Shown: positions 3,610 through 58,837, numbered from the whole stretch's first letter. The stretch is DNA of 63,127 nucleotides, filler included, from Reclinomonas americana ATCC 50394 (GCA_048213135.1; 16 parts of 16 records of this genome joined end to end with filler, not necessarily neighbours in it), one strand, 5' to 3'. Made by a program: numbers and translations. Notes: a model not told the origin generated them from the sequence alone.

Positions 3610-3995
3610 NNNNNNNNNNNNNNNNNNNNNNNNNNNNNNNNNNNNNNNNNNNNTTAATTAATTAANNNNNNNNNNNNNNNNNNNNNNNNNNNNNNNNNNN
3701 NNNNNNNNNAAAGGGGGGAAAGGGGGGAAAGGGGGGAAAGGGGGGAAAGGGGGAAGGGGGTGTGCGTGAGCACACAGACGAATGTCCACGAATCGCTTGC
3801 CGATAATGACGATGGCACACCAACAATATATGCACAATTGCTAAAAAATAATAGAAACTTCACTGAGACACATATAACAAGCATCTACGAGTGATAGTTA
3901 CTGTTTAGCATACTAAGGTTTCTGGAAGAGAAGAACGGAGCAGTCACAACCGTAATCCGATTGTATCTGTCCGTTCTTCTCTTGATTGTATTCAC
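3376..3995. repeat. ~105-bp inverted repeat pair (3376-3480 / 3891-3995)
   Basis: 3891 gtgatagttactgtttagcatactaaggtttctggaagagaagaacggagcagtcacaaccgtaatccgattgtatctgtccgttcttctcttg is the reverse complement of 3376-3480 with only a few mismatches. An assembly gap lies between the arms. Confidence 0.85.
3610..3709. other. Artificial contig/gap linker N44-TTAATTAATTAA-N44 (first of 15)
   Basis: Identical 100-bp linkers, with stops in all six frames, start at 3610, 12184, 14349, 16543, 19781, 21848, 23441, 25781, 28164, 31383, 36461, 44216, 52112, 54551 and 58738. Confidence 0.98.
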
Positions 3996-17000: not shown

Positions 17001-19392
17001 AGTCGGGAAGAGTGACTGGCAAGACCCTATGATATCCATCTCACCTCCATAGTAGCAGCTCCATTCGCCCACACCACGCCACCACCACAGTCGCTCCCCG
17101 AGTTTCCATTGTTCGGCAAGTTGCTGCCTCCGTTGCAGTTGCCCGATGCGCGATTCCCAGTCGCCGAAGTATTCTGCGAGTTGTGTGATCAGCTTCAAGA
17201 ATCTCAACAATCTCGCCTCATCAGCACGAACCCTCATTGTAACAGACGTGGGCGAGGCCGATGACACAAAGAAAGCCCACACAGCTCCACCGCCGGCCTG
17301 CTGACCGCCAGTGGCACTTGTGATGGAACATTGATTCGAAGGACATGTCATACCGTTGGCACTGCTGGCTACTGCGTTGCCCGCAAAGGAGGTGCCTTGG
17401 AAGCCGACATGCAGGGCATTCATGAGAAAGAGGCCACCGCCTCCCACGTTCGTGAAACCGTTGGCGGCCTTCGTGTCACCGTTTCCACATTGGAACACCG
17501 TGTTGTTCGCCCACACGCCACCCACATCGGACAAAGTGGCCGACGTTGGGTCGGTCACATACACAGCACCGCCACCAACGTTGCCGCTGGCGAGGTTCAT
17601 CGCCGTGTTGTTCACGAAATGGGTGCCGACCGTGTTGACGATCACCCCACCCGTTCCTTGCACAAACACGGCACCGCCGCCCGCATTGCCAGACGACGTT
17701 GCCGTGCTGCCTGACCCGACGACCGAGTTGCTGGAGAACACGCTGTCTTGCAAGGAAACCGTGGCACCAGCGGCGAGGTTGACTAGCGACATGGCGGCTC
17801 CAGAGGCATCGTCTCCGACCTTGGTGCAAGCGTGCCACGTCGAGCCTGTGACTTGAACGACGGAGAAGGGACCGGAGGCGAGCACGACAGAGGCCAACGT
17901 GCCGCGTGCAGCAGCGCGATGGTCCACAAACTGCGTGTTGGTGATGGTGAGGGAGGCGGTGGAGGTGGCGGGTAGGGCAGTGGCATCCAGCTGGAGGGCG
18001 CCCGCCGTGGAGCCCGTGAACGAGCAGTTGGAGACGACGACTTGCGGAGACATGGTGGTGGCCAGGGCGCTCCACGAGACCGCTGGCTGACCGCCCGTCA
18101 CAGTGAGGCCAGTCATCTCGAAGCGTGGTGCGTCCTGGACGAGGATGGGAAATGCTGATGCTTGCAAGATGGGCGATGACGAGGGTGAAGAGGATTGGAG
18201 AGTGATGTTGCGACCTGCAAAGGTGGTGTTAGATAATTTGTTCGGGGAGGGGGTGAGAGAGAAAAATAGTGGGAGAGAAAGGAATAAAGAGAAGGGAAGG
18301 GTGGAGGGACTGGGAAGGAGATAGAAAAGAAGAGGGAGAGCAGCAAGACAGAAAGAGAGGGAATAAAAACGGGAGGGAAAGGAAGATTGTGGCCAACCAG
18401 TCCTTTTATCTCTATGCTCTTGTAGTGTGACTCTATAAGCTGCTTCTCTGCCTCGTTGCCCTTGCTCTGTTGCTTGACCCGTCATCCGGTCAACGGCAAC
18501 GATGAAAGTGGAATGGGGAACAAATGTTCCAACAGTGGTCGAAAGTGAGAGAGACACAAAATCAAAGGAGGCGGCATCAACCAACAAGCTTTTCGTGCAT
18601 GCCTTTCAGAAGTGCATTTGATCGTGGTGGTCTCTCAGCATATTAGTGTGTGCGCGCGTCTTTCTCACTCTCTTTCTGAGGACCTCTTGGTTGCTTGTCA
18701 CTCTGCTGTCACGTTTCGAGCGCGCTCTTCCTCTCTCTCTGTTTTGTGTGGGACTGTGTGAGAGAGAGAATGGGCGGAGAGCGATAGCTATAGGCGTCAA
18801 ACATACACACACAGAGAGAGAAAGAGCGAGAGAGTGAACGAGCAATTGTAGGAGAAAGAGCGCGCTCGAAAACGAGACAGCAGATTGACACGACAACGAG
18901 ATAAACAGAAAAAAGGGAGAATGGCGTGCATACGCAATAATACACACATACAACCACGCACAGATACAGAAAGAGAAAAAAGGAGACCGAGAGAGAGAGA
19001 GAGAGACAGACCGAGAGAGAGAAACAGACCCCGAGAGAGAGAGAGAGAGAGACAGACCGAGAGAGACAGAGAGAGACAGAACGAGAGAGACAGAGAGAGA
19101 CAGACCGAGAGAGACAGACCGAGAGAGACAGACCGAGAGAGAGAGAGAGACCGAAAAGGAGAGAGCGAGAAAAAGAGAGACAGGGGTGCTTGCATCTGGG
19201 GACACTCACCATTGAGGGAGAGAGGCTCAGTCAAAACAAACGTGTCCGCGGAGAACAGCACTTGCAGAGCCCAGTCGGATGCCGTAGCTGGGTATCCACG
19301 CTGAGTACACGATGCAGTGACCTGGCCGAGGGCGCAGGGGATGGCGAGGTCGCCACATGGGGTGGTGGGGGAGCCGGTGGCGGAGACATTAA
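5002..19392 (-). CDS. Large multi-exon surface receptor: Pmp-like (GGA[ILV]/FxxN) parallel beta-helix repeats, Ig-like segment, Cys-rich (ephrin-receptor-like) region, C-terminal multi-pass TM domain; N-terminus missing in gap
   Basis: Exons at ~19208-19392, ~17235-18215 and ~9100-11060 are full of GGG(A/V)(L/V/I) and FxxN motifs. 7690-8340 reads CPAGYSYTDIGCQQCPPGQY...CPTNADC...CPYDYC...SPLCGAC. 6540-7290 and 5285-5710 give hydrophobic helices with FGVLYDHFRPPVVWYQ|GYQLCRRL. Last exon EIEMQLGG...GAA* ends at 5002. The gene spans three gaps in consistent exon order. Confidence 0.8.
5985..6480. repeat. Intronic degenerate tandem repeat (~95-100-bp unit, ~5 copies)
   Basis: Recurrent aaacaatcaagcatcagtgcgcccgtgtg...ctcagcgacctgtgccataa...gtgcagcagagaagc. 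Confidence 0.8.
8563..8875. repeat. Intronic tandem repeat (~80-bp unit, ~4 copies)
   Basis: Recurrent gctacagagaagc(a/g)agttag..agcaaaggtaacaaataagcacaatgaaaga..gagtaggagaca. Confidence 0.8.
13677..13975. repeat. Intronic tandem repeat (~110-bp unit, ~3 copies)
   Basis: gccatcacca(g/t)tcaca..gcgcgca...gtga..gtgacaaga....aacaatc...cattcccagct occurs near 13678, 13790 and 13900. Confidence 0.75.
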
Positions 19393-19685
19393 CTGGGGGA
19401 AGGGAAGTGTTGAGACAAGAGGCAGCAGATAGGGGAAGGAGGTAGGGAAGGAGGGGAGGAGAGAAGGAGGGAAGGAAGAAGGAGGGAAGGAGGGAGTGGA
19501 AGGAGAGAGAGAAGGAGAGAGAAAGAGACACAGAGTGTGTGACAGTGAGACACAGAACAGAGAGACAGAGCAGAGAGACAGAGCAGAGATCAGAGAGAGA
19601 CGCACAGAAAGATCGGCAAAGTAAGCTGTGAGAGCGACAAGTCAGTCATAAAGAGACAGTGTAGAGAGAGAAAGAAAAAAGAAAG

Positions 19686-19730
<45 letters not shown>

Positions 19731-19880
19731 TAGAGAGAGAGAGAGAGAGCGAGAGAGACCGAGCAGGGCGACAGAGCAGANNNNNNNNNNNNNNNNNNNN
19801 NNNNNNNNNNNNNNNNNNNNNNNNTTAATTAATTAANNNNNNNNNNNNNNNNNNNNNNNNNNNNNNNNNNNNNNNNNNNN

Positions 19881-21562
19881 AGTGTGAGGACGTCCATTTC
19901 GATGCCTGTAGTACGATGGAGCATGTTAGGTGAATGGTGACGGATACACAGAGAGAGAGAGAGGGAGACCAAAGGGAAATGCAAGGAGAGAATACAAACA
20001 GATGGACAATAAGAGAGAGATCTTGAGAAAGAGAAAAGACACAGAGAAATGAGACAGAAAAACAGAGAAAAGAGACAGAAAAACAGAGAAAAGAGACAGA
20101 GAAAAGAGACAGAGAGAGAGAGAGAAGAGAGCAGACGGACAGACAGACACAGCGCGAAGCATGACAGACAAGCAGAGCATGTCGACAGTTAAACAAAGAA
20201 TTCACAGGCAAACAAGAAGAAAGACAGATGTGCAGAGAGAAAGTGGAAACGTGGAGACGTACGAGGAATACAGCAAGTAAAATCATGGAGAGAATACAAG
20301 CAGACAGACATTGAGAGGGAGAGACAGAGAGAGAGAGAGAGAGGCGGAGAGACAGAAATCATAGCATGACGTGCACCAACAGGTACGAAAGAACGCGTCC
20401 ACACAAACAGACAAGAAAAAAAGGCAGATGGTGGAGAAAAAGCGAGAAAGAAAAGTCAACGAAAACGACGTAGAGACAGCAAGCAGGCAGACAGAAAGAC
20501 AGACAGTGAGAGAGAGAGAGAGGCAAACAGAGAGGCAATAAAATGAGATGACGGCAGTCGAAGAGAATGAGGAATGCAGAGGGAGAGATACAAACACTCT
20601 CCTTCTCTCCCTCTCTCTCCCTCTTATCACTCTCTCTCTCTCTCTCCCTCCTCACTCCTCTCTTCCTCTCCGTCGTGTAACTCACCAGCAGTTGCACACT
20701 CGGTTGCCATCAGCGCCTGATCGATCGACGCAACCTTTGCTCCACGCCGCCGTCGCCAGCAATCTCTGAGCTTGAGCCACACCTTCTTGATCACCTTGAA
20801 AACCGTCCAGGCAATCGGCAGCGCCAGGATGCAAATCACAATAATGAGGAGCACAATGCAGATGATGACTTTGAATTGGTTCGACGCCTGCGACGCAAAG
20901 ATGGTGGAGATGACCACCAGGCCCAGCAGGCTGATGGTCTGCACACACCGCAAGAGAGAGAGGCATGAGTATCAAGAGGGCACATGTGCCTTGATATAAC
21001 AACCGACTCCATCAACGCAACTTCCATAATGTTCTCCACACGATGGTGGTACGGCATGACAGAGATTTGCACCGCCAGGAACCCGATGCACACCACCCAC
21101 AGCGCCAGCGGCAGCACATCAAGTGCGCCAATGGCAGCCATGGGGAACAGAACCGCCAGCAGCACGAGACGACGACTCAGTTGATAGCCTAAAACGCGAA
21201 CAGCAGTGAGTGTGTGAGAAGGGAATGCAGAGACGGGAGAGCAGGACAGAAGAATCAAAGGAGCAAGGGAAGCGACCAAAGATGCAGCGATCAACTGCGC
21301 ACAACAACCATGCACTGAGACGCAACCAAGGAACCACACCACCGGCTTGCGATATGCGTCATACAACACGCCAAAGATGCTCATCACCTGTACAACAATG
21401 CAATCAGCAACTGCGCACACGATAGACAGGCAGAGTGACGCAACCTTCTCGTCCTCCAGTCGATCCTGCCGACGCAGACGCATGACCCAGATCACCAGCA
21501 ATATCGGCGTCACCAGCACCACGAGTGCAACAATCGCAAACAGCGGAGAGACTCGATTCCAT
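19881..21562 (-). CDS. 3' multi-TM portion of a tandem paralog of the 5002-19392 receptor (both ends run into gaps)
   Basis: WNRVSPLFAIV...RLRRQDRLEDEK|VMSIFGVLYDAYRKPVVWFL|GYQLSRRLVLLAVLFPMAAIGALDVLPLALWVVC...|TISLLGLVVISTIFASQASNQFKV...|GIEMDVLT aligns with the downstream gene, and intron positions are the same. Confidence 0.85.
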
Positions 21563-23378
21563 CTGCAAGCACCACAAAAAATGGTCAGACAAACGAGAGA
21601 GACAAAGGCACTTTAAAAACGCCTCTCCCAGTCCCCCATTCCTTCTCGGCATCATTCTCCAGTGTTTTGAGCTCGCTCAGCTTCACACTACTTCCTTCAC
21701 TCGCCCACTTCTCTCACTCTCTCCCATGTACTCCGTTGCCTCACAGCCTGCGCTCTGCCTCTCTCACGCTCTCTTCTCTCTCTCTTTCTTCTCCTCTCTC
21801 TCTCCTTTGCTCTCTCTCTCGCTCTCACTCTCTCACGTGTCTCCCTGNNNNNNNNNNNNNNNNNNNNNNNNNNNNNNNNNNNNNNNNNNNNTTAATTAAT
21901 TAANNNNNNNNNNNNNNNNNNNNNNNNNNNNNNNNNNNNNNNNNNNNTCCCCTTTCCCCTTCTCCCCTTCTCCCTTCTCCCTTCTCCCTTCTCCCCTTCT
22001 CCCCTTCTCCCCTTCTCCCTTCTCCCCTTCTCCCCTTCTCCCTTCTCCCCTTCTCCCCTTCTCCCCCTTCTCCCCCTTCTCCCCCTTCTCCCCCTTCTCC
22101 CCCTTCTCCTATTCTCCGTTCCCCTGATTGTCGGTGAATGAAGTTGAAGTTGTTTCGCAATCAATCGGCATTTAATGTCCAGCCATGTCCAGCTGTGATT
22201 ATCTTGCGTACGGAGGAAGTGTGTGCACAAGCCCCCCACGTACATGCATATGCCTCCTTCAGCGTCGCTTGCCTGGATTCCTTTGACCTGTCCTGTCCCG
22301 TTTGTTCACGCTCACACGTGCTGCGCGCGCGCTCGCTGGCACATAGCACGCAACCTGCAACACGCACCTGGTGCATTCTCCTGCTACATTGCTGCTCTTT
22401 GTGCACCAGCGAGCGTGCGTGCGCGTGCGCGTGCGTGTGTGTGCGTGTTTTTTTGTGTGTTGTGTTAACGTTGAGACACTCGGCGACTGCCATATGCGCA
22501 CTCTCTCTCTCCGTGCGCGCGCACGGTCTTGTTTGTCTTGCACGTCCTTCTCTACACGCTGCGTCAGTTCTTCTCATCGTCAGTGTCGCAGCAGCGCGCG
22601 CGGAAATGCATTACGCCACATGCATGTCGACCAAAGTTGGCGATTGATCGGCCTCGTTTGCGCCTTTGGGATCAGGTGTGTGAGGGGGCGGTGACGCTGT
22701 GAGCTCTCCCTGATTCCCCTCTTTGTGTGACTGTTTCTCCTTTTCCCCTCTCGCTCCTTTCTCTCGCTAATCTCGCTCTTCTTCTGACGATACATTTCTC
22801 CGCCTCTCTCTCTCTCTCCCCGCTTCCTCCGCCGCTCTCCGACGCTGTGTCTCATTCTGTCTGTTTGTGTGCATATATATATATATGTGCGTGTGCTTGT
22901 GCTTTAGTCTCTCTTACTTTGCGTCCCCCGTATTCTGTCTCTCGTCTAATTCCCTCGCCAGGACACATACATATTTCGCTGATTGCAGGCAAGATGCTCT
23001 TTTACGGTCGCATGCGCCGGCTGCGCGTAACCGCGGTGTGTGGCACAAGCTTGTTTCTCTCATGATCAGTGCCAGCTGCAGAAGCAGTGTGAGTAATCTC
23101 CGATGGATAGTGCATTGTAGTGCGACTGTGTGGTTGTGAGTCTCAGACATCGTTCTTTGGCGCAGCGTTGCGACATCTACGGCTCTCAACTCACGGCGAC
23201 TCACGCTTGCGTTCTTCGAGACTTGTCGTGTGCCCTTTTATTGGTTGGTGCTATGCGGTTTCGTGACTCTCTTTCTTCTCGCTTTCACTCCATCTCCCCT
23301 CTCCCTCCCTCTTCCTTTAACCCCCATCTCCCTTCTTCTCTCTCCCTCTCCCTTTACCTCCATCTCCCTTCCTCCCTC

Positions 23379-24050: not shown

Positions 24051-25780
24051 ATATGACGATACCCGATTCTTGATGTGACTGGCGGGTGGATCAGTGCATG
24101 CAGGACCAGTGACAGACAGTCAACCCGTTCTGATTCGGTTTTAATCGGCGGTGACAGTGTACCAACGTCGACCCCCTCGCCTCCCACAACACCTTGGCCA
24201 CCACTGCGTCGGTGGGCGGCAGCCGGTGACGCGCCCAGAGACAACAGCAGTGTGACGGTCCAACTGGCCAACAACAACAACATCAACAACAACAACACAT
24301 TCGGTCACCACGCCGACTGTTCTTCTCAAGAGACAGCGGGCGACCCAAGAATGACAACGGTGGACGGCATCTGTGACTGTGTGAGGAGGCGCACGAGCGG
24401 ACCACGGAGGTGTACCTCTGGGCACGATCGCGATGATGCCTCTTTCACGACTGTGGACGGTGGCAGTGTCAACCACTGTCCAGTGTGGCGTTCTGTGATA
24501 CCCAACGAGTTGTCTCGCGGTGCCTTTTGGTGATGCGACACCGAGCATCAACGGTCATGCTGAGTCCTGGATGAGCGAGTGAGGGCTGTGTGGCACCATT
24601 GCCCATGGCGAACGTGCTCATGCCCCCGCTTTCACCACCACTACATCAGCCGACCCGACCGCCACCAACCGTCTCCAACACCAACACCAACAATCAACAA
24701 CAACAACAACGACGACGATCACCAACAACGGTGGCGTCAGCAGACATATTCACTCGGTCACCACCACCACCACCACCACCTTTTTCGGAGTCTCATCAGC
24801 AACATCCACCCTCAACCTCCACCACAACACCTCACCTTCACAACATCTCATCACCGATGATGACTGCAACTGCCAGTGGCTACTTCCGACGAGTAGTAGC
24901 CACCAACACCTCCTCCGCCCTCACCTCGTCAGCAACAACAACAGTACCCCCCCAACCCCGACGACCACATGAACAACATCAATGTGGAGATACATTCTCG
25001 CCATCCATGGTACCATGCCCCTACGGTTTCACCACCACCTCGCCCATCAACAGCCTCCCCCCCGCTCACACCTACAACGACTCCATCACCCCTCACCGAC
25101 GACATCAACATCGACTACATGCATGCTCCCTCCAAATACGACTGCGCAATTTTACATCACCACCCACCCCTGGTCAATCGGCGACGCTGTCGACACGGTG
25201 CGGCGTATGTCGACGCCAGACACCAGTCACGACTACCAGCGCAGCCACCAACACCCACGCTTGGCAGTCATTACCCGCTCTTCAACAACAACATCGACGC
25301 GACGGTGACGCCCGTCGGCGGATGTCTGCCACCACAACCAGCGTCACCACCAGCGCTGCGGCTACACCGATGTCGGGGGCAACCCCCTGCTGCACTACCT
25401 GCTGTACCACCTGATGTGCTCGTGCCACCCCCAACGTCGCCACCCTCGTCGGCACATCATCTTCACCAGCATCACTGGCAGCCGCCCACCACCGCCATCG
25501 CCCACCATCAACACTGGCAACATTCATCATCTCAACATCAACAACAACATCAACAACGACACCAGCACCATCGAGGCGTTGCTGCATGACGCTCCACCAC
25601 CACCACCACCACCAACACCAACATCAACATTCACCATCAACAATCACCATCAACATCAACTGTCACCATCTGCAACAACACCTGTCCATCTGCAACGACA
25701 CCTCTCCAACACCACCACCATCATCACCATCATCATCAACAATGGCCGTATGGGTGGAGCGACTGTTTTCCACCGTTGCT
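23541..25780. other. Low-complexity CAC/CAA/CAG-rich segment of unclear function
   Basis: Triplet runs open several frames at once, there are degenerate internal repeats, and no domain or splice pattern is recognisable. Confidence 0.45.
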
Positions 25781-25880
25781 NNNNNNNNNNNNNNNNNNNN
25801 NNNNNNNNNNNNNNNNNNNNNNNNTTAATTAATTAANNNNNNNNNNNNNNNNNNNNNNNNNNNNNNNNNNNNNNNNNNNN

Positions 25881-28800
25881 TTAGCTCATACTTTTCATTT
25901 GCCCTTTTCTAAGTCTGGGGGCGGGACCCTTACGTCCCGCTGTCGATGTAGTCTGCGTCTCTAGAAGACACAGATGAATCAGATTTTTTTCTCAGTGTCT
26001 TATTTTTGCGGAAGAGCTTTAATGTGCAGTATTTTACTTCCCACGCTTTCTGGCGATAAGGCCTCTCTCCTAGGGGAGGCGTGGAGGAGTTGAGAGGAAG
26101 TCTCCCCCTCCGCCAGATACTAGGAAGAGCGTCACGACAAATGTACTACTACTACTACTACTACTCTCCAAACCTTCGCTGATGATGAGAGTGCTGTTCA
26201 TCCGACCTCCAACTCCGGTTCCATCGTCCACCAAAATCACCACCTGCATTCCACTTCCCGACAAGCGATCCACATTCGATCGTAACTCGGCAGCCGCAAT
26301 GAAAAAGTTCTCCTGCTCAGGGGACACCACAATGAGTGAGCGATTAAGACCAATGGCCACGACAATCGCGACTGCAGACCTTGGCAGCTCCGCCAACCAA
26401 GGTGAATGTATGCGTCTGGCAGCAATTGGCATCCAGCGCGCGCAGCCGTCCCACCAATCCATTGCGCGACACGGGTCCCTTGAACAGTGCCGGTTCAATT
26501 GCCACACCCACCGGTGCAGCATTCGCTGTAGGCCAGACAGGTGAGCTAGACGTAGCTGAGAGAGCGACGAAAAAAAGCAGTCCACACAAACCCTCTGTAA
26601 TAGTAAACGTCCTCTCCAGCCACAATCCATTGGAGTCTGTCGAGCGCACGATCACTTCGAAAGGCTGCCCGCCGACATTCTCCACCGTGAAGCGCAGCTT
26701 GTTGCCAGCAATGTTGAACATGGACGCTTGAGCGCCTCCTCGAATCGTGTACGTGAACGACTCGCAACAGTTGGAGTCCGTGGTCGTCAGTGTACCAACA
26801 ACGTAATTGGTGTTCAGTGTGCGAGGCACGTAGGTGGTTGCCGAGAGTGAGATTTCACTCGGGGCCACGAGCACTGCGGAGGCGTAAGCATATTGATCTA
26901 TGCAGCACAAAATCCTACTTTGTTCAACGTACCTTCCGAGAGAACAAAGGTCTTCTCCAGCACACCTCCTTGCTGATCGTCGGTTCGTATCGACACTTCG
27001 AGATTGTTGCCGGCTAGTGAAAGCACATTCGATACCAACTTGTCGTCTTGAATGCGGAATTTGGCCTACAATGTGGAAAAGGAGGTGAGCGAGCATGCCG
27101 CAGAACAGAAGAAGGGTGTGCTGAAGAACGAACCGCATCGGCGCCGCCAAGAATCGTATACACGATGGTGACGCAGCAGTTCGGGTGGGCGGTGCGCAGA
27201 GTGGCAACAGTGCCGCCGAGTGGCAGACCCACCGGGTACGACGTGCTGCCAACTGTCAGATTAGTCGGCAGGACACGGGCTGTGCGTGAAGGAGAAGCAA
27301 GTTAGCGGGAGTGTGAACAATAAAAAGAACGCAGCATGCAAACCTTCAGCAACAACAAAGAGCTTGGTAAAGGTCTTCGCGGTGGAATCTGTGACGGTGA
27401 TCTTGACGCTCCACGCTCCCGTGTCCCCAACTTGTGTCATCACCAACTGGCTTCCGATGATATCAAAGTGTGACTGCGATGATGAGAGGGAGAATGAGTG
27501 ACAGGTGGCCAAGAGTTTTCAACAAAAAAGGCCAGGAAATACGTCAGGTAAGATCCTCTTCTCTTGTGCAACAGCTGAACAACTGTTCTACGCTCAGCAC
27601 TGTCATCTTTCTTCCGCGCCTCTTCGGTTTTCATATGTCTTGTGTTTGTTCCACAAACAACTCCTCATTGGGCGAGCGTGATATTCTCTCTCTCCCCTTA
27701 TCACGGACACGCACATACACACGTATTCAACAGACTGGAAAGTGATCCTCTGGCGACACAAGATGTTCGCTGGCAGCTCTCTCTTCATCTCTCCCCTTGT
27801 CCTCTTTCTCTATAACTATTTTCATGTCTTCCACATCATCTGTTCGATTGACACTATCATTCTCATTCCTTGTCGCCCCTCCCTCTCTGTTCTCTCTTCC
27901 TTCTCCTTCCCTCTCCTTTCTCCTTCCATCTCCTTTCTCCTTCCATCCCCCTTCTCATTCTCACTTCTCCTTCCCTCTCCTGTCTCCTCCCTCTCCCTTC
28001 CCCTTCCCTCTCCCTTCCCCTTCCCTCTCCCTTCTCCTTCTCTCTCCCTTCTCCTACTCTCTCCCTTCTCCTTCTCTCTCCCTTCCCCTTCCCTCTCCCT
28101 TCTCCTTCTCTCTCCCTTCTCCTTCCCTCTCTCTTTTCCCTCCCTCTCCCTTTTCCTTCTCTCNNNNNNNNNNNNNNNNNNNNNNNNNNNNNNNNNNNNN
28201 NNNNNNNTTAATTAATTAANNNNNNNNNNNNNNNNNNNNNNNNNNNNNNNNNNNNNNNNNNNNTTCTCCTTCTCACTTCTTCTTCTTCTCCTCCTCACTC
28301 TCCCTTCTCGATTCCTCTCCCTTCTCCATTCCTCTCCCTTCTCCATTCCTCTCCCTTCTCCTTCCCTCTCCCCTCTCCTTCCCTCTCTCGTCTCCTCCTT
28401 CCCTCTCTTGTCTCCTTCCCTCTCTTCTCCTTCCCTCTCCCTTCCCCTTCCCTTTCTCCTCTCCTTCTCCTTCCCTCTCCCTTTCCCTTCCCTCTTCCCT
28501 CACCGCATCCAGTTCCGACTCAATGGCAAACGTGAATGTGTCATCCGAATTGCCATCGACTGCCGACAGGACACCAACTACCGTGTTCAACATGGTAACA
28601 GGTGGCGTGTACACGGCGTTCGACAGCGCAATGTCGGATGGCGCCACAGGCACTGCGTAGAGACAAAATGAGCACAGAGAGACGCGCGTTGAATCATTGC
28701 GCGACGTCACCACACGCAAACCATCATCGACAACCAGAATCTTGTCCAAGAACGCTCCTCGGGAATCCGTGGAACGCACGAGCACGGAGAACCGACTGCC

Positions 28801-31800
28801 GCGTTGCTGAGCATTGCGCAACACGAGAGTTGTGCCATTGACGATTTGGAACAGGTCAGCCGCAGGTCCGCCCAGCAGCGTGTACGTGAACGTGTCGGCA
28901 GCGTTGTCATCGTCCGTCGTCAGTGTGCCAACCACCGTATTCGACGTCACCGTCGGCGGTGTGTACGTGGCGTCGGGAAGCACGCGAATGTCGGCAGGCG
29001 GTACATTGACTGCACAACAACAATGTTCACAGTCAGCTGCAACTCGTGAGACCCACAGCAAATTGTCGTCGTCGATACACCCACCTTCGTTGATCACAAA
29101 CGTCTTTTGGAAAATGACTCCATTCGTGTTGGTGGTGCGCACCACCACTTCCAGTCCGTTCCCGCTGACATTGGCCGGCACAAGGACCAGCTTGTTGGCG
29201 CCGGTGATGGTGAACTGCGCCTGCGCTGCGCCGCCGACCACTGCGTACACGTGACTCTGACCGACAGTGGCGTCCACCGTCGACAACGTGCCGATGATAG
29301 CATTGCCGGCGGCACTTCGTGGCACGTAGGTCGTTGATGAGAGGAAAAGGGCCAGCGGTTGCACCGTAACTGAGGAGCGGAGAGGAGAATGAAAACAATG
29401 AGGGCGAGGAGAGAAGCGACACAACAACATGCACCACGACTGGCAGAAATGAACACAAGCAGTCAAATCAATCACTTCTTTTCTAGTATCCACTCTTCCA
29501 CAAAAGTACCTTCGGAAATCGTAAACGAGCTGGCATACAGTCCACCTTGTCCGTCGTCCACTTGAATCTGCACTTGCAGTCCCGACACGACGGTCGCGTC
29601 GTATCGCAGATACAGCACCAAATCCAGGCCGACGAAGAATCGAGACGCGTCCGTGCCGCCGACGACAGAGTACGAGAACGTCTGGCAGCAGTTGTCGTCG
29701 GCTGCCGTCAACGCGCCAATGGGAATGTTGGAAGGCGCACCGGGCGTCACATACGACGTGCTACTCAGTTGCACCAGCGTGGGCGCCACATTTCCTGCGC
29801 AGCATGCTTGTGAGCTCCTTGACATTCCACTCGCGAAGAAACAAGAAAACACGAAACTCTCGTTCAAAGTAAACATTCGCGTGATGACATCCCCGCAGCC
29901 GACGCATGTACCAGTGACCTCAACTTCCAGCTGGTTACCGGTGACGCGCGCCACCCGGGTGACCAGCGACGATCCACTGACGGCGAAACTCGCCGCATCG
30001 ACACCACCAGTAACACTGAAAGTGTACGAATCGGACGGATTGGCATCGGTGACTGTCAGCACGCCGACCACCACATTCGACTGTGGCCAGTTTGGTGTGT
30101 AGACGTCGGTCGAGAGCACGAGGTCGGTGGGCGACACGTTGACTGCAGATTGATGTGAATGCGAATTCAAAGAAGGGATGTAGAAATACAATTGGTGCCA
30201 AGCGCGAGGCTGTCCACCTCACTCTTCCCCTCTTTCCCCCTCCCGTCCTCTCTTCACCCCCGACTCACCGTCATTGACGATGAACATCTTATCCAACGTC
30301 GCTCCAAACCGATCCGCCGTGCGCACAACAACGCGGAGACCACCACCCCGCACCCCCGTCGGCAACAGCGCCAGCTGATTGCCGTTGACAACGGCGAAGA
30401 GCGCAGAAGAGGAGCCGCCGACAATGGTATACGTAAAGGATTCGATGCTGTTAATGTCGACCGTCGACAGAATGCCGACCACCGTGTTCATTGTCGCCGT
30501 CGGTGGCGTGTACGTGTTGGCAGTGAGCGTAATATCGGTCGGCGGCACATTGGCTGCGGGTGGGAAATAGTGAGACAACAGCGAGAATGTTTCACAAAAA
30601 ACGCGAGTGGTGAAGAAACTCCCACCTTCTGTGATAGTCAACGACTGCTGCGTGGACAGCGGAGGCGTCGCGTCATCGGTCGACTGGATGATGACCGAAA
30701 GATTACTTCCGCGCTGTCCGGCATTGCGCAGCACCAGCTGATTGCCGTTGACGAGATCAAAAAGAGCAGCATCGCCACCGCCCACAATCGCATACGCGAA
30801 CGTCTGACAGCAATTCAGGTCCACAGTGGAGAGCGTGCCGACAATCTGGTTGGCCACTGGTGTCGGTGGAGTGTATGCCGAGGCGGAGAGCACGAGTCGG
30901 GTGGACGGCACATTGACTGCACAACCATGGCATCAGTATGAAGGACGAGGAGAGCATGAACTCGAGGAAATCAGAAAGAGGACAAAGAGAACAAGAGGGA
31001 AGAAGCACACACAGACGGTATAACGCGCCCTCATCCTCCCTCATCCTTTCCGTCATCCTCTCCTCCATCCTATTTCCCTTCCTCTTCCGTTCTCTCTCCC
31101 CCATTTTCTTCCCCTATCCTCTCTCCCATTCTCTCCCCCTAATTATCTCCCCCGTTCTCTCCCCATTCTTTTCCCCCGTTCTCTCCGCCATCCTCTCCCC
31201 CATCCTCTTCCCCATTCTCTCCCCCATCCTCTCCCCCCATCCCATCCTCTTCCCTCATCCTCCTCCATCCTCTCCCCTTCTCTCCTCCATTTTCCCCCAT
31301 CCTCTCCCTAATTCTCTCCCCCGTTCTCTCCCCTACCTTCTCCCCCATCCTCTCCCCCATCCCATCCTCTTCCCTCATCCTCNNNNNNNNNNNNNNNNNN
31401 NNNNNNNNNNNNNNNNNNNNNNNNNNTTAATTAATTAANNNNNNNNNNNNNNNNNNNNNNNNNNNNNNNNNNNNNNNNNNNNTCCCCATCCTCTCCCCCG
31501 TTCTTCCCCCATCCTCTCCTCACCCTCTCCCCTTTCGTCTCCCCCGTTCTTCCCCCTCCCCTCCCCTATCCTCTTCCCCATTCTCTCCCCCATCCTCTCC
31601 CTCATTCGTTCCCCACCAACTCACCTTCGTTGATTACGAATTGCAGCACCTGTGTCCCACCAGCGCCATCCGCCACCTCCACACTCACTTGCAACCCGGT
31701 ACCGGTGAGCCCGCCCGCGACGTTGCTGCGCAGCTGGTTGCCGACGATCGTGAACTTGCTCTGGTCAGCACCACCAACCAGCCGATACGTCAGCGTCTGG

Positions 31801-34800
31801 CAGCAGTTCGCATCGGTGGCCGAAAGCGTGCCAACCACTCCATTCAATTGCAGCGGCGGCCGATACTCGCTCGACGAGAGGGCGAGGCCCGTAGGAGGAA
31901 GATTGGCTGTTGTCATGGTGAGCAACATAAATGACACAAGACACGCTTCTCCCATGCGCACCAGCATTCACGGTAAGCAGTTGCGTGACGGACAGCGGCG
32001 GCGTGCCACTGTCGGTGGCCTTGATGCTCACGCTCAGCGGCGTGACCGTTTCGGTGGCACTGCTGATGAACAGCTGGTTACCGTTCATCACTCGGAACAG
32101 GGCGCCGTTGCCAGTTGGCAGCACAGCAAACGTGCAACTCTGTGCCGTGTTCGCATCGGTGCAACTGAGGGTGCCAACCAGTGCCAGAGGCAACTGCGTC
32201 GGATTGTACACAGCAGACGACAGCGTGACGCCAGTCGGTGCCACATTTGCTGCAGAAACCGAAACACAAATCGGTGAGTGGCATCATAAAAAAGTAAACA
32301 CAGTCTCCGTGCCCGACGCACCTTCGCTAATGCTGAACATTGCATTCGCCAAACCACCAGCTCCGTCGCTCACCTGCACCGTCACTTGCAAGTTATAGCC
32401 TGTCAGGCCCACCACGTTGCTCCGCAGCAAAGAGCCACTGATGTTGAACAGAGTGGCATCGGAGCCTCCAACGACAGTGAATGACAGCACCTGGCCGGTG
32501 TTGCCATCCGTCGACGACAGTGTGCCAATGACACCGTTCAGTGCAAGCGGGGGTACAAACAAACTGTTGGAGAGCACCGGAGCTGTCGGGAGGAGATTCA
32601 CTGCATCAAGAACACAGACCATTAGCATGTGAAAAGGCAGTCACCAAGAAAAGCATTGACGTGCGATGCTCGAAACTCACCCTCGTTGATGACGAAAGCG
32701 GTGCTGGCGACGCCACCTGCGCCATCGCTGACGCTCACCGATACCCGCAAGCCGTTGCCAATCAGCCCCGCCACGTTCGAGCACAGATTCGAACCGATGA
32801 TCACAAACAATGCCTGATCCGCCACCCGTGATGGTGAACAGCAGTGCCTGACCGGTATTGGGGTCGTTCGACAGCAGAGCTCCCACAACGCCGTGCAAGG
32901 CAAGGGGCTTCGTGTACGTGCTCGAAGACAGCGACGGCGTCGACGGCACAACATTGACTGCTCACTCATCCGTTGTTAGACACGCACAGACAGACAACCG
33001 AAAGAAAAAGAGAACGCAACTCTCGGAGATTGTGAATGTGCTGGTGGCCGAGCCGCCGGCGCCATCGCTCACCATCACCACCACCTGCAAGCTGTTGCCG
33101 GTGAGGCCGGCCACGTTGGAGCGCAGAGTCGCGCCGCTGGTGCTGAATTGCGCCGCGTGTGTGCCACCCGTGATGGTGTACGTCAGAGTTTGATCGGAGT
33201 TTGGGTCCACAGAAGTCAGCGTGGCGACGGTCCCGTTGAGCGCGAGCGGTGGCGTGTAGAGAGTGGTCGACAATGTAGGCGCCGTTGGCACCACATTGGC
33301 TGCAACACACAGAGCAAAGTAAGTGTACACATGAGCACAGAGATACAGACAGATGCAATTAGTCAACATAGCAACACACCTTCGCTGATGACGAATGTAG
33401 CACTGGTAACTCCACCAACTCCGTCGCTCACTTGCACTGTCACTTGCAGTCCATTGCCCGTCAGTCCGGTAAAGTTGGAACGCAGAGACGATCCGTCAAT
33501 GTTGAACAGCGACGCGTTGACACCACCGGCGACGGTGAAGGTCAATGTCTGTCCCGTGTTCGGGTCCGACGACGACAGTGTGCCAATCACACCGTTCAGC
33601 AGAAGCGGTGGAATGTACGTGGTTGTCGACAGCGTGGGTGCAGTCGGGGGGAAGTTGACTGAATGTGACACAAGGGAAGTAAGCGAGCATGCATCGATGA
33701 TCAATACGGGGTTTCGAGATGCAGACCTTCGTTAATAGTGAACGAAGTCGAGGCCGTTCCTCCAACGCCATCACTCGCTCGCACAGTCACTCGCAATCCA
33801 CTACCCGTGAGACCGGCAACATTGGAGCGCAAGCTCGTGCCGCTTATGTTGAACAAAGACGCGTTCGCGCCGCCAGTAATGGTGAAGGTGATGCTCTGGC
33901 CCGTATTCGGGTCGCTCGAGGACAACAAACCAACGACTCCATTCAAAGCCAGCGGCGCAACGTACGACAACGCTGACAGTGTCGGTGCCGTGGGCGAGAC
34001 ATTGGCTGCGGTGGACAATGCACTCAGAAAACAGAAGAGGAAAAAATGAACTGAAATGCAAAGCATACACACCTTCAGTGATAGTAAAAGTGCTGCTGGC
34101 CACACCACCGACGCCGTCATCCACGCGTACAATAACCTGCAGGCCGTTGCCAGTCAAGCCCGCGACGTTAGAACGCAAGCTGCTCCCGCTGATATTGAAA
34201 GATAATTGATTGGCTCCGCCGATGACAGAGAATGTCAGCGTCTGACCCGTGTTCGGATCACTCGAAGAAAGCGTGCCAATCACGCCGTTGAGGGCAAGCG
34301 GAGGCGCATATGTCGACAGCGAGAGGACAGGCACAGTGGGCGAGACATTGCCTGCACGAGTTGTCAAAAAGAAGAAAAAACACGGCAACAACGCAATGCA
34401 CAAGACCTTCGTTAATGATGAAAGTCGAGCTTGCTGTGCCGCCGACTCCGTCGCTGACTCGCACAGACACTTGTAGGCCATTGCCTGTCAGCCCAGCCAC
34501 GCTGGATCGCAAAACCGAGCCACTGATGCTGAACGACGATGCATTTGAGCCACCAATGATGGTGTACGTCAGCGTCTGACCAGAGTTGACATCCACCGAA
34601 GACAGCGTCCCGACTACGCCGTTGAAAGCGATTGGCGGCGAGTACGTCGTCGATGATAGGGCGGGAGCGGTTGGGCTCACGTTTGCTAATGGGGATTCAA
34701 TAAGCAACAGCTGAAAAAAGGGGGATTCTGGCAGGACAAACGACACACCTTCGCTGATGGTAAACGTAGTGCTTGCCGTTCCGCCCGCTCCATCACTGAC

Positions 34801-37800
34801 ACGCACAATCACTTGAAGACCATTTCCCGTCAGCCCAGGAGCATTTGACCGCAGACTGGTACCGCTAATGTTGAACCAGGCTTGATTCGTGCCACCAATG
34901 ATAGCGTACGTAAGCGTCTGACCCGTGTTTACATCTGCCGACGACAGTGTGCCAATCACACCATTCAGCGCAAGAGGTGGCGTGTACGTCGACGATGACA
35001 GTGTCGGTACAGTCGGTGCCACATTTGCTGATGCAGTCACCCACGTCAGTCGCATGACAGATTCATCAAGAACACGAGGACATCAAACACACCTTCGTTG
35101 ATCGTGAACGTTGCACTTGCTGTCAGGGTGCCGTCGCTGACCTGAACTGTCACTTGCAGGTTGTTACCCGTCAGGCCAGCCACATTCGACCGCAGACTCG
35201 TGCCACTGATGTTGAATGACGTCTGATTCGTGCCACCAGTGATCGTATACGTCAGTGTCTGGCCCGTGTTGGGGTCGGCAGACGACAAAGTGCCAATTAC
35301 TCCATTCGTGACGAGAGGCGGTGTGTACGTCGACGACGACAGCGTCGGTGCCGTCGGATTCACGTTGGCTGAGACGAACACTTGTGTCAGTGACAAGGCA
35401 CATACGAATCGAAGAGACAACAAACAAAGTTATACCTTCGCTGATCGTGAATGTCGTGCTTGCTGTCAGAGTTCCGTCACTAACTTGCACAATCACTTGC
35501 AGACCATTGCCAGTGAGGCCTGCCACATTCGAGCGCAGACTCGTGCCACTGATGTTGAACGAAGCCGAGTCCGTGCCACCCACAACGGTGTACGTCAGTG
35601 TCTGACCCGTGTTGGGGTCAGTTGATGCAAGCACGCCAATCACTCCATTTAACGCCAAAGGCGGTGTGTATGTCGACGACGACAGCGTCGGTGCAGTCGG
35701 TGCCACATTGACTGTCCCAGCCAGGAATGAGAGTCACGCGACAGACGTTCCAAGAACACGACAACAACAACAAATACCTTCGCTGATCGTGAATGTAGCA
35801 CTGGCCAACAATGATCCATCGCTGACCCGCACTATTACTGTCAGACTATTGCCAGTCAGACCAGCGACATTGGACCGCAAATTAGTGCCGCTGATGTTGA
35901 ATGATGATGCGCTGGCGCCGCCCGTGATCGTGTACGTCAGTGTCTGACCCGTATTGGGGTCGGTCGACGACAGCGTGCCAATCACTTCGTTCACAGCGAG
36001 CGGCGGCGTGTATGTCGACGAAGACAGCGTCGGTGCAGTTGGTGCCACGTTGACTTTCACAAGAGATGAGATGCGTGCGTGACCCACAAGAAAACGAGAC
36101 CCGATGCGCACCTTCGCTGATCGTGAATGTCGTGCTTGCCGTACCGCCTGCTCCATCGCTCACTTGCACAGTCACTTGCAGACCATTGCCAGTGAGGCCC
36201 GCAACATTCGACTGCAAGTCGGTACCGCTAACATTGAACAACGAAGCATCGGCACCACCAGTGACTGCATACGTCAGCGTCTGGCCTGTGTTGGGGTCGG
36301 TAGATGCCAGAGTGCCAATCACTCCATTTAGTGCAAGAGGGAAGGCATAGGTTAGCGATGACAGCGTCGGTGCAGTCGGTGCCACATTGACTGTCAAATA
36401 GTAACGGCAAGTCAACAAACAACGAATGAGAAAGACACAATCACTTCTTGAGACAGCAGANNNNNNNNNNNNNNNNNNNNNNNNNNNNNNNNNNNNNNNN
36501 NNNNTTAATTAATTAANNNNNNNNNNNNNNNNNNNNNNNNNNNNNNNNNNNNNNNNNNNNGACATCCGTGGACGACAGCGTGCCGATCACCCCATTCAGT
36601 GCAAGTGGTGGTGTGTACGTCAATGATGAGATTGCCAACAGAGTCGGCGCGACATTGACTACACGATGCAACAACATCAGCATGCGACAACGCAGAACAA
36701 AGAAAAGCAATGCATATGCAGGTCACACCTTCGTTGATCGTGAACGTCGTGCTCGTGGTCAGAGTTCCGTCGCTCACTTGCACAGTCACTTGCAGACCAT
36801 TGCCAGTGAGACCGGCAACATTGGATCGCAAGTTGGTGCCGCTGATGGTAAACGATGCTGCGTTGGAGCCACCCGTGATCGCGTACGACAGCGTCTGGCC
36901 AGTGTTGGGGTCGGAAGACGACAGAGTGCCAATCACTCCGTTCACGGCAAGCGGCGGCGTATATGTTGTCGAGGACAATGTCGGTGCAGTAGGTGCCACA
37001 TTCGCTGACAACATCAACGGCGTTTTGCTCAGTCGCACGACAAACAAACAATGAAACGAACGACGACATCAAACACACCTTCGTTGATCGTAAATGTCGT
37101 GCTAGCAGTCAGGGTGCCATCGCTTACTTGCACAGTCACTTGCAGGCCATTGCCAGTCAGTCCAGATACACTTGACCGCAAGTTGGTGCCGCTGATGTTG
37201 AACGATGTCGCATTCACGCCGCCCGTAATGACATACGTCAGCGTCTGGCCCGAGTTTGGATCAGTCGACGACAGCGTGCCAATGACACCATTTGTGGCAA
37301 GAGGCGGCGTGTACGTCGACGATGACAGCGCCGGCGCGGTCGGTACCACGTTCACTAACGCCAAGTGACCAACATCAGGCACACGGCAGACATATCAAAG
37401 ACACGACAACACCAACACACCTTCGCTGATCGTGAAAGTCGTGCTTGCAGTGCCGCCTGCACCGTCACTCACTTGCACAATCACTTGCAGGCTATTACCA
37501 GTCAAGCCAGCCACATTCGACCGCAAGCTCGTGCCACTAATGTTAAATGACGCCTGATTCGTGCCACCGGTGATGGTGTAGGTCAGTGTCTGACCCGTGT
37601 TCACGTCGGTCGACGACAGCGTTCCAATCACTCCATTCGTGACGAGAGGCGGTGTGTACGTCGACGACGACAGTGTCGGTGCAGTCGGAGCCACATTGAC
37701 TGTCGCAAACAGCAGGCAGGACACGTTGAGAAGAGTGTGTGGGATCACCTCAAACAAGCACGCATGACATGCAACCTTCAGTAATCGTGAACGTGGCACT

Positions 37801-52373: not shown

Positions 52374-53381
52374 GATGCAAAGTAAATGGCAGGAGTTGAG
52401 CGAGGACAGAGGCAGAGAAATGACGCGCGCGCTGAGGGCGAAAGTGAGAGTGCGTGATCCGCCAACACTCACACAACCTTCCCCTTCCAGTTCCCCTTCT
52501 CCCTCTCTCACCTGCCGTAAAATATGACGTGCTGCCAACACCGCCGGCATTGCCTTGCCCCACAGTTCCTGTACCACCTGGAGTCCCCAGCACAGCAGCA
52601 CTACCGCCGCCACTGCCACCCGAATTCCCCGGCTTGGTGCCATTCACAGTGCCACCGCCGCCTCCGCCAATCGCAATCACCGTCGTGCCAATGGACGAAT
52701 TGGCGCCATTGGCTCCATTGGCCGAGGTGACGGCGCCCAAGCCACCAGCGCCGACTGTGATGGCGTACGTGGCGCCATCGGGAACCACATTGGAGCCAGT
52801 GAGCACACCACCTGCGCCACCTCCGCCGCGACCAAACCACAGAGTGCCGGCGATTGCGCCGCCGCCACCACCGCCTCCGGCCACCACCAAGTGCTCGCGA
52901 TTGACACTGCCGGCGGGGATGCTCAGTGTGCCGCCGTTGGTACTCGTGAATGTGTGCACGGTGTAGGTGAAGCCGCTGGCGTTGACGGTGGTGATGGTGC
53001 CGCCGGTGCCGAGGAGCGTGACTTGCGCCGAGGCCAAGGTCGCGAGCAGCAGCACAAGAGAGAGGATGATGATGGACAGTGCGACGCCTGCAATGTTGTT
53101 GAATAATGAGTGCAAACTCCGCGCGCGCGAGTGTGCGTGAGAGTGGAGGGAGAGAAGAAACCAGTGTGAGGGAGAGAGAGAGAAACTGGAGTGGAACATT
53201 TTATGCGTGCGTGACAGGCGCAAAGTGCACGCGTGTGAGTGCATGTGTGAGGGAAAGAGAGAGAGAGTATGTGCACGACAACAAAGAGTGCGTGAGTGTG
53301 TGAGAGAGAGCGAGTGATAAATGCAGACGCACTTGGTTTGCATTGTGCGTGTCTCCGTTGCGGGAGAATGTCACATAGCAT
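25881..53381 (-). CDS. Giant secreted/surface adhesin-like protein: signal peptide, glycine-rich domain, bacterial Ig-like, IPT-like, then ~63 cadherin-like repeats (>6000 aa visible)
   Basis: Exon 1 53381-53333 (MLCDILPQRRHAQCKP) splices in phase 1 to 53087-52512 (SVALSIIILSLVLLLATLASA/QVT...YTVHTFT...VVAGGGGGG). Next come 51948-51066 (...GGNGGSGIVIVRY...LAIQTQPS...FATQPV...PPTYTSFAPTS), a short exon at ~50770-50822 and the repeat exons down to 26174. Candidate last exon 25960-25881 ends in TAA. Five gaps interrupt the model. Confidence 0.85.
26174..50720 (-). repeat. Coding tandem array: ~280-bp exon + ~55-75-bp intron unit (~345-bp period), ~63 units
   Basis: Consensus NVAPTAPTLSSSTYTPPLAxNGVIGTLSSTDxNTGQTLTYTITGGxNxxSFNISGTSLRSNVAGLTGNxLQVxVQVSDGxxxTASxTFTISE. 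Units typically end GAA G|GT and start AG|(T/C)C AA(T/C). Confidence 0.95.
49740..49955. repeat. Intronic 10-bp minisatellite (gagtgcagga/gagtgcagaa)
   Basis: Direct 10-mer repeats inside the ~1-kb intron between the second and third cadherin-like exons. Confidence 0.85.
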
Positions 53382-54015: not shown

Positions 54016-57220
<3,205 letters not shown>

Positions 57221-58200: not shown

Positions 58201-58837
58201 CTGTTCGGACGCAGATACGAAGTCAGTATGCATTGACAAAGTGCTGTACCATGTCGCGACAGTGACTGCTGACGTACATGGTAACGGCAGTCGCGTTCTG
58301 GATTGAGTTACTAGGCGATCAGACAACCGAATAACAGAATGCAGATGCAGCTAAAATGACTGCTTACCGAGATGCTGCCTCATGTCCCGGAAGGGGATCT
58401 GCGCTCCACAGTCTCGGGGACAGGGACGAAGGCACACGTTGTGATCGTGATCCTGCATTTGGCTCAGCGGTATGCGCGCACCGCAGCCACGAGTGCATGG
58501 GTGCGGGCACTCGCTCCATAAGTGCTGGTCGCGGTGATCCCTGGCTACGCCACTCCCGCACGTGTAGCACTTATTGCGGGTGAGGTTCGGGTCTTGACAG
58601 TCCGTTGCAGCATGCGTGTGGTAATACTCGCCAAGAGTCTGTATCGTGTGGTGGGGGCGAGACGCATGATTGATGTTAACACAACTCTACGACGCGTTGC
58701 GAGACTGTCGATCAAATGCTTCGTACGAACCAGTCGCNNNNNNNNNNNNNNNNNNNNNNNNNNNNNNNNNNNNNNNNNNNNTTAATTAATTAANNNNNNN
58801 NNNNNNNNNNNNNNNNNNNNNNNNNNNNNNNNNNNNN

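Follow-up and report, generated by a model that had tools for sequence, protein, structure and literature searches.

In this study, we analysed a 63,127-nt stretch of DNA from Reclinomonas americana ATCC 50394 (GCA_048213135.1), referred to below as the window, and examined a giant gene on its minus strand. We consider it likely, with a probability of about 0.6, that this is one eukaryotic gene whose product, about 6,500 residues long or more, is secreted or displayed at the surface and follows the plan of a fibrillar adhesin. The product is probably a very long adhesion fibre, a function that we infer from its sequence. Read from the N terminus, it would comprise a signal-like segment, a glycine-rich Gly_rich_2 domain, a Big_1-like bacterial immunoglobulin (Ig) domain, a probable IPT/TIG domain and then about 63 domains of cadherin fold. 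An earlier note on the same DNA had described a spliced eukaryotic gene with these parts in this order. The present analysis supports that description, and the gene model points to what is apparently a single gene.

The largest part of the gene is the repeat array. Between 26 and 51 kb, the stop-to-stop frames of the minus strand contain many copies of a unit of about 95 aa. A hidden Markov model (HMM) built from the repeats of the window itself matched at 67 places on the minus strand (E 5e-07 to 6.5e-50), the outermost positions being 26172 and 50724, and at none on the plus strand. Full-length matches accounted for 57 of the 67, and 62 domain starts and 62 domain ends were counted; with the halves paired, the array (26172..50724, minus strand) has about 63 domains, each about 95 aa long and in most cases encoded by one exon. 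The repeats are real, and their number is the hand count of the earlier note, whose repeat pattern also agrees with the computed consensus, xAxNVAPTAPTLSSSTYTPPLAxNGVIGTLSSTDxNTGQTLTYTITGGxNAASFNISGTSLRSNVAGLTGNxLQVxVQVSDGxGGTASxTFTISEG. Six positions (L12, L30, D34, F54, L61 and V75) are invariant, and the positions that hardly vary include N4, P7, N24, G28, N36, D81 and E95. Threonine, serine and glycine together make up 41% of the residues, with 4.0% aspartate plus glutamate, 0.2% lysine and 0.3% cysteine. In 40 of the 56 aligned repeats, an N-I-S sequon is conserved at the same column. An overall enrichment of N-glycosylation sequons in the repeats was considered and rejected, with 69 sequons observed against a shuffled mean of 114.

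Purifying selection acts on the encoded repeats. Among 46 central repeats (1,035 pairs), the median proportion of nonsynonymous differences (pN) was 0.133 and that of synonymous differences (pS) 0.558, giving a ratio of nonsynonymous to synonymous divergence (dN/dS) of about 0.145. Most repeat units are only 74-75% identical in DNA. A higher-order duplicate is found at 44485..48377 (minus strand), which is 90.8% identical to 36562-40453 over 3.9 kb, with exon identity of 91.5% against intron identity of 85.8%; both copies end at a contig break that falls within the same type of repeat. In a quick tree, which sampled 20 of the 56 repeats over short columns, the 12 sampled central repeats formed one clade with 95% support in the Shimodaira-Hasegawa-like approximate likelihood ratio test (SH-aLRT), which fits a recent growth of the array within the gene. 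The array may have grown through tandem duplication of units consisting of one exon plus one intron.

The earlier note had proposed a cadherin-like fold for the repeats, and structure prediction bore this out. An AlphaFold model from a 36-row alignment reached a mean predicted local distance difference test (pLDDT) score of 95.3. With this model, Foldseek retrieved nearly only extracellular cadherin (EC) domains at template modelling (TM) scores of 0.52-0.76. Compared with 48,161 PDB representatives, the best 50 matches of the model were all cadherin EC domains (Z 9.7-11.5, root mean square deviation (rmsd) 2.0-2.8 A, 88-96 of 96 residues aligned). According to passages of the Pythium genome paper, the motifs LDRE and DxND part true cadherins from bacterial cadherin-like proteins (PMC2926784). 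Neither calcium motif occurs in any of the 56 repeats, and the relaxed patterns D.ND, D.N[DE]N, LD[RYF]E and D[RYFA]E are likewise absent from all of them; DxD is present in 3 of the 56 and DxN in 53. The Pfam Cadherin family (PF00028) matched one of 36 repeats at E 0.21, without reaching the gathering score, and none of the long frames. Since no repeat keeps LDRE or DxND, the repeats are cadherin-like and not true cadherins; because both of the tested features, the calcium motifs and PF00028, are absent, membership in the true cadherins fails although the fold is common to both. Pfam placed 17 of the 36 repeats with Big_9, 10 with He_PIG, 7 with Cadherin_CELSR2_9th and 1 with Cadherin. The Big_9 (PF17963) matches are marginal (E up to 1, best 2.1e-05; 24.1 bits for the first repeat against a cut-off of 23.6), and a frame of three repeats reached 29 bits. 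The sole NCBIfam match of the repeats was tand_rpt_95 at E 0.098. The place of the three-calcium linker of cadherins may be taken by a single cation site, or by a network of hydrogen bonds, which N4, N24, D34, N36, D81 and E95 would form wherever two domains meet. These conserved residues may be the remnant of one site, corresponding to cadherin site 3. The array would also be a natural example of cadherin-fold rods without canonical calcium linkers.

The exon structure of the array is highly regular. There are 66 junctions between successive HMM matches, of which four lie at linkers between contigs, two have no intron candidate and 60 could be modelled. All 60 modelled introns are of the GT-AG type and keep the frame; 57 are in phase 1, two in phase 2 and one in phase 0, with a median length of 66 nt (range 55-1,009 nt). 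Phase-1 introns thus lie at the domain junctions, so that most domains correspond to one symmetric 1-1 exon; in the last few, an extra intron lies near profile position 50. The longest intron (49089..50097, minus strand, 1,009 nt) lies between repeats 2 and 3, is of low complexity and holds no repeat match. The visible coding sequence amounts to about 540 aa, counted from the ATG at 53199, plus 5,965 aa, in total about 19.5 kb of coding DNA. At the 3' end of the gene (25884..26171, minus strand), a GT follows the last repeat, and a possible short last exon has its TAA at the contig edge. If the main proposal is true, a eukaryote has rebuilt the fibrillar-adhesin design of bacteria, in which a long stalk of repeats carries a binding head, with an intron for each domain.

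Relatives of the repeats were sought with a profile in 1.84 billion representative proteins; 16,915 were found at E<=0.001 and 1,906 at E<=1e-30. The best 150 of the 16,915 have 788-7,398 residues and 8-38 matched stretches. Twenty relatives were looked up, and the named ones are bacterial (Silvanigrellaceae, Chitinophagales, Chitinophaga, Paenibacillus, Flavobacterium), except for two euglenid clusters from Euglena longa and Eutreptiella. The euglenid proteins gave the best scores per domain, 92.6 and 90.3 bits, against at most 70.6 bits for the others. The earlier note had placed the repeats closer to bacterial surface proteins than to animal cadherins, which holds at the sequence level: bacterial cadherin-domain proteins score about 41-70 bits per domain and metazoan cadherins 12-16 bits in their best single domain. 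In the quick tree, the euglenid repeats and those of the window grouped apart from 90 domains of 45 other proteins with 97% SH-aLRT support.

Three groups of proteins are comparable to the array. Bacterial cadherin-stalk adhesins (proteins annotated as 'cadherin domain-containing protein' in Silvanigrellaceae, Chitinophagales, Chitinophaga and Paenibacillus, and those of Flavobacterium and Ekhidna sorted by the type IX secretion system, T9SS) share long tandem arrays of the same repeat family and the plan of a stalk combined with other domains. In contrast to the giant gene they have no introns, their repeats carry DxD in 7 of 13 to all cases and mostly DxN[DE], and their content of aspartate plus glutamate is 10-16%. 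The bacterial protein P0127 scores 742 bits on Pfam Cadherin, a model that the repeats of the window fail. The bacterial arrays are also shorter, with at most 38 stretches among the best 150 relatives, and none of 153 repeat-rich proteins has a Gly_rich_2 head. The euglenid proteins, which come from transcriptomes (P0264 from Euglena longa, EukProt; the P0188 cluster from Eutreptiella, named 'SbsA Ig-like domain-containing protein' in UniRef), share the NVAPTDI..LS...YTPP motif and the loss of the calcium motifs, and P0188 starts with a signal-like segment, as does the giant protein. Their repeats are about 32% identical to those of the window. However, they have only 8-9 repeats and no Gly_rich_2 head, and continue for about 1,300 further residues with Big_5 and a Cys-rich end; these C-terminal regions have no match anywhere in the 63,127-nt window. 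Metazoan giant cadherins (FAT4, CDH23, PCDH15, CELSR1) have the same domain fold in similarly long tandem arrays of about 27-34 repeats. Their likeness in sequence is marginal (best whole chain CELSR1, E 6e-05), and their DxD aligns with D34-x-N36 of the repeat.

The earlier note had called the gene the best candidate for a new system. This is overstated, since proteins with 8-9 repeats of the same kind are also expressed in euglenids. The unusual features of the gene are its head, the number of repeats and the layout of one exon per domain. Head and repeats occur together in none of the 120 listed relatives of the head and Ig domain (proteins of 582-2000 residues only) and in none of the 153 repeat-rich proteins. 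Searches of the open-access literature for cadherin-like giants in protists and for cadherin together with euglenid returned nothing on this architecture. If it is one protein, its array is among the longest of cadherin fold, with about 63 domains compared to at most 38 stretches in the best 150 relatives. Together with the euglenid homologues, it suggests that protists have repeatedly used bacterial-type cadherin-like stalks to gain reach at the cell surface, and this bears on the pre-animal origins of the machinery for adhesion and prey recognition.

The N-terminal part of the gene encodes the putative head. A candidate start codon at 53197..53199 (minus strand) is in frame with a hydrophobic segment at 53023..53091 (minus strand; residues 7-29 of the translated piece P0005), which ends in ASAQ and may be a signal peptide or a signal anchor; a short spliced upstream exon is the alternative to this start. 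The N-terminal two thirds of a Gly_rich_2 domain (PF21722) follow at 52512..52932 (minus strand), where P0005 scores 42.2 bits over profile positions 4-155 of 226, and the exon ends at a phase-1 GTGAGA donor. A phase-1 GT-AG intron of low complexity (51949..52511, minus strand) separates it from the C-terminal third of the domain at 51626..51948 (minus strand), which ends in GGSGIVIVRY and scores 21.7 bits over profile positions 133-226 (piece P0006); the gathering cut-off of the family is 24.3 bits. Both exons align without gaps to the consensus of 30 bacterial Gly_rich_2 proteins, which indicates that the domain is complete. NCBIfam gave no match for the head pieces; a PDB sequence search returned no match for P0005 at E<=1 and two matches at chance level for P0006, and no papers on Gly_rich_2 or PF21722 were found in the open-access literature.

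Next to the glycine-rich domain lies a Big_1-like bacterial Ig domain (51317..51625, minus strand) with strong bacterial homologues; the exon with the C-terminal third of Gly_rich_2 runs on through this domain and into a third, beta-rich segment. Pfam Big_1 (PF02369) reaches 20 bits on this segment, below its gathering cut-off of 34.9 bits. The segment matches tandem domains of Gemmatimonadota proteins named 'Ig-like/adhesin/invasin' at up to 58-63 bits per domain, and proteins that carry precomputed Big_1 hits match it at 50-63 bits. It is related to Big_1-type Ig domains and presumably works like them. The following segment (51066..51316, minus strand) is a probable IPT/TIG-like domain, for which 25 of 30 hits of the Atlas features belong to TIG sets (best 0.90), a lead only; Pfam gave no PF01833 match at E<=1 and only DUF7498 at E 0.42. 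A candidate mini-exon of 50 nt (50774..50823, minus strand), bordered by AG and GTGCGT with consistent phases, would join the IPT-like exon to repeat 1 in frame. A search with the head and Ig domain gave 274 relatives at E<=0.001, and all named ones among the 120 listed are bacterial. The junction between the glycine-rich and Ig domains (GGSGIVIVRY..P..LA..TQP) is conserved in one bacterial protein, P0042.

An intron and a linker interrupt the head domain, so P0042, whose domains follow one another in the same order, was folded as a proxy. In its model, residues 38-305 have pLDDT values of 85-98 by blocks of ten, and the rest, including the Ig domains, is poor. The well-predicted part matches the fibre of cyanophage Pam3 (7ypx_A) with Z 16.3 and an rmsd of 2.4 A over 182 aligned residues (30% identity), and a tail-tip chain of Bxb1 with Z 15.7; the match to the glycine-rich domains of ALK/LTK is weaker (Z 6.5-8.3). 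A sequence profile also reaches the Pam3 fibre (E 0.003). Domains of this type in Pam3 gp24 are described, in passages of the study of that phage, as recognising the host receptor, and the likeness of the Pam3 fibre domains to S16 gp38 and ALK is pointed out there (PMC9608196). As the bacterial proxy matches phage fibre tips, the glycine-rich module is plausibly a binding head, and the binding tip proposed in the earlier note thus becomes plausible by homology of a predicted model. The module would fold as a TNF-like sandwich with a glycine lattice, like the receptor-binding tips of phages, and serve as a ligand-binding head. In the phage tips (Pam3 gp24, Bxb1 and S16 gp38, the last as cited in PMC9608196) and in ALK/LTK, the domain likewise sits at the distal end of a long molecule, facing the ligand. 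Here, by contrast, it would be N-terminal in a predicted secreted protein of a eukaryote and be followed by Ig and cadherin-like domains, and the match is made through the bacterial proxy. A relative of the phage tail-fibre tip and of the ligand-binding domain of ALK/LTK would thereby stand at the head of a eukaryotic extracellular protein.

Cadherin-like domains measure about 4.5 nm each. By arithmetic only, 63 such domains would form a rod or tether of about 0.3 micron, which would hold the head away from whatever carries the C terminus. Fibrillar adhesins are defined as proteins with an adhesive domain, tandem stalk domains and surface attachment, and the stalk domains named in the same paper include Big_9 (PMC8286594). 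The giant protein has tandem stalk domains, about 63 of them, whereas the class is bacterial and the gene contains 60 modelled introns. It resembles fibrillar adhesins in design but falls outside the class in its formal definition. It is tempting to speculate further that this bacterivorous protist carries a phage-type tip on a tether of calcium-independent cadherin-fold domains 0.3 micron long, assembled from modules of prokaryotic or phage origin that were amplified exon by exon, and recognises and catches bacterial prey by their surface glycans, in the way that a tail fibre lets a phage recognise its host. We regard this extension as rather improbable; if it were true, a eukaryote would capture prey with a fibre whose recognition module is borrowed from phages.

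Several observations weigh against the reading as a single secreted adhesion fibre. The signal peptide was called by eye from the translation. The fold of the head was predicted on a bacterial proxy, and BLASTP of the head pieces against P0042 is weak in the glycine-rich part, where P0006 matches at E 0.004 and P0005 not significantly. Phage fibre tips act as trimers, and the sequence analysis gave no sign of oligomerisation. Past the last repeat, neither a transmembrane segment, nor a glycosylphosphatidylinositol (GPI)-like end or other anchor, nor a cytoplasmic tail was seen in the 290 nt up to the end of the contig. The contigs that start at 36561 and 44316 break in the same type of repeat, which makes the order of the blocks and the copy number of the array uncertain. 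Finally, one repeat contains a frame break near 32,820, which falls in a G-rich run.

The most serious alternative is that the protein is a structural fibre of an extracellular coat, mucilage, lorica or stalk, secreted and incorporated into a matrix, in which the repeats provide bulk or elasticity and the head serves in assembly instead of binding foreign targets. It is unlikely, though it fits the missing anchor and the composition of the repeats, rich in Thr/Ser/Gly (41%) with few charges (D+E 4.0%, K 0.2%), and the N-I-S sequon kept in 40 of the 56 repeats would agree with heavy glycosylation of a coat protein. However, the total of sequons lies below the shuffled expectation (69 against 114), no link from the gene to a matrix was seen, and the closest structural relatives of the head are modules that bind receptors or ligands (PMC9608196).

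A doubtful second alternative concerns the assembly: the gene could be in part an assembly product, in which several genes, or diverged alleles of a shorter array, were set in tandem; the real number of repeats and the continuity of the gene would then be different. The window (about 53% GC) is a chain of contigs with fifteen identical 100-nt linkers, each of which consists of 44 N, TTAATTAATTAA and again 44 N, with stops in all six frames (first 3610-3709, last 58738-58837), and many contig ends show purine- or pyrimidine-rich simple sequence. For each linker, the adjacency of its two contigs needs an argument of its own. The giant gene spans five of them (starting at 28164, 31383, 36461, 44216 and 52112). 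The first (28164..28263) is inside an intron and is flanked by complementary halves of one domain, profile positions 3-48 before and 50-97 after it, which supports the adjacency of its two contigs. The second (31383-31482) lies in an intron of low complexity. The third (36461..36560) cuts a repeat at profile position 37, and the fourth (44216-44315) cuts repeats at position 93 on one side and position 20 on the other; since both cut repeats, sequence is missing there. The fifth (52112-52211) lies within the head intron, and because the two Gly_rich_2 exons are collinear with one full consensus, its flanking contigs are taken as adjacent. The number of these linkers speaks for an assembly product, as does the block of 3.9 kb shared at 90.8% by the contigs starting at 36561 and 44316, and the bacterial-looking last contig of the window means that not every junction need be physical. 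Against it, all six pieces run collinearly along a single strand, the linkers at 52112 and 28164 are each flanked by two halves that complete one domain, most units are distinguishable by their DNA identity of 74-75%, and single contigs already contain 21 and 15 uninterrupted full repeats.

We judge it less probable still that the gene is a recent pseudogene, or that it yields a truncated product of about 50 repeats, owing to the frame break (32815..32822, minus strand). The two halves of this repeat match in different frames with an overlap of 8 nt, which leaves no room for an intron, and the upstream frame hits a stop. Nevertheless, no second lesion that breaks the frame was seen in the roughly 19.5 kb of coding sequence, the repeats downstream keep open frames and conserved motifs, and the G-rich run makes an indel error plausible; a sequencing error and a real lesion are not distinguishable here from sequence. 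Bacterial contamination, that is, a giant adhesin gene of a bacterium, would fit the mainly bacterial families of repeat and head and the bacterial-looking contig in the same window, and is rejected as having almost no probability because of the intron structure, with sixty in-frame GT-AG introns, no open frame of bacterial length, and a GC content and low-complexity introns that match the eukaryotic flanks.

Other parts of the window show further features. The last contig (58838-63127) has 60-66% GC and long intron-free frames for a class-V aminotransferase, a protein of the type I phosphodiesterase family and an aldehyde dehydrogenase, and it resembles a bacterial operon for phosphonate breakdown. 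This contig would come from a contaminant or a symbiont, or else have been transferred very recently. Long open frames at 9085-11496 and 16923-18605 (both minus strand) are full of GGGA[LVI] and F..N..A motifs and have no Pfam match at E<=0.001; the motifs resemble beta-helix repeats of the polymorphic-membrane-protein type. The neighbours of the giant gene may therefore also be large surface proteins. Two paralogous frames at 5048-5836 and 20839-21612 (both minus strand) are hydrophobic, look multi-pass and are 52.6% identical over 76 aa, and a Cys-rich frame with CxxCPxGxY-like spacing is found at 7582-8349. Together with the GGGA[LVI] frames, these suggest two paralogous receptor-like genes upstream. 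The region 12001-20000 has a strong purine excess on the plus strand over 8 kb, with a GC skew of +0.2 to +0.32 and an AT skew of +0.25 to +0.40. An open frame rich in Pro, Thr, Asn and Gln (24575-25836, plus strand) lies just past the linker that borders the final contig of the giant gene; if the two contigs adjoin each other, it may belong to a neighbouring gene that runs towards the giant one. On the other side of the giant gene, a spliced gene for a GH31 glycosidase (56068-57100, plus strand; Glyco_hydro_31_2nd, E 1.2e-13) has as its closest relatives mostly bacterial alpha-glucosidases or sulfoquinovosidase-like proteins of at most 64% identity, plus scattered eukaryotes.

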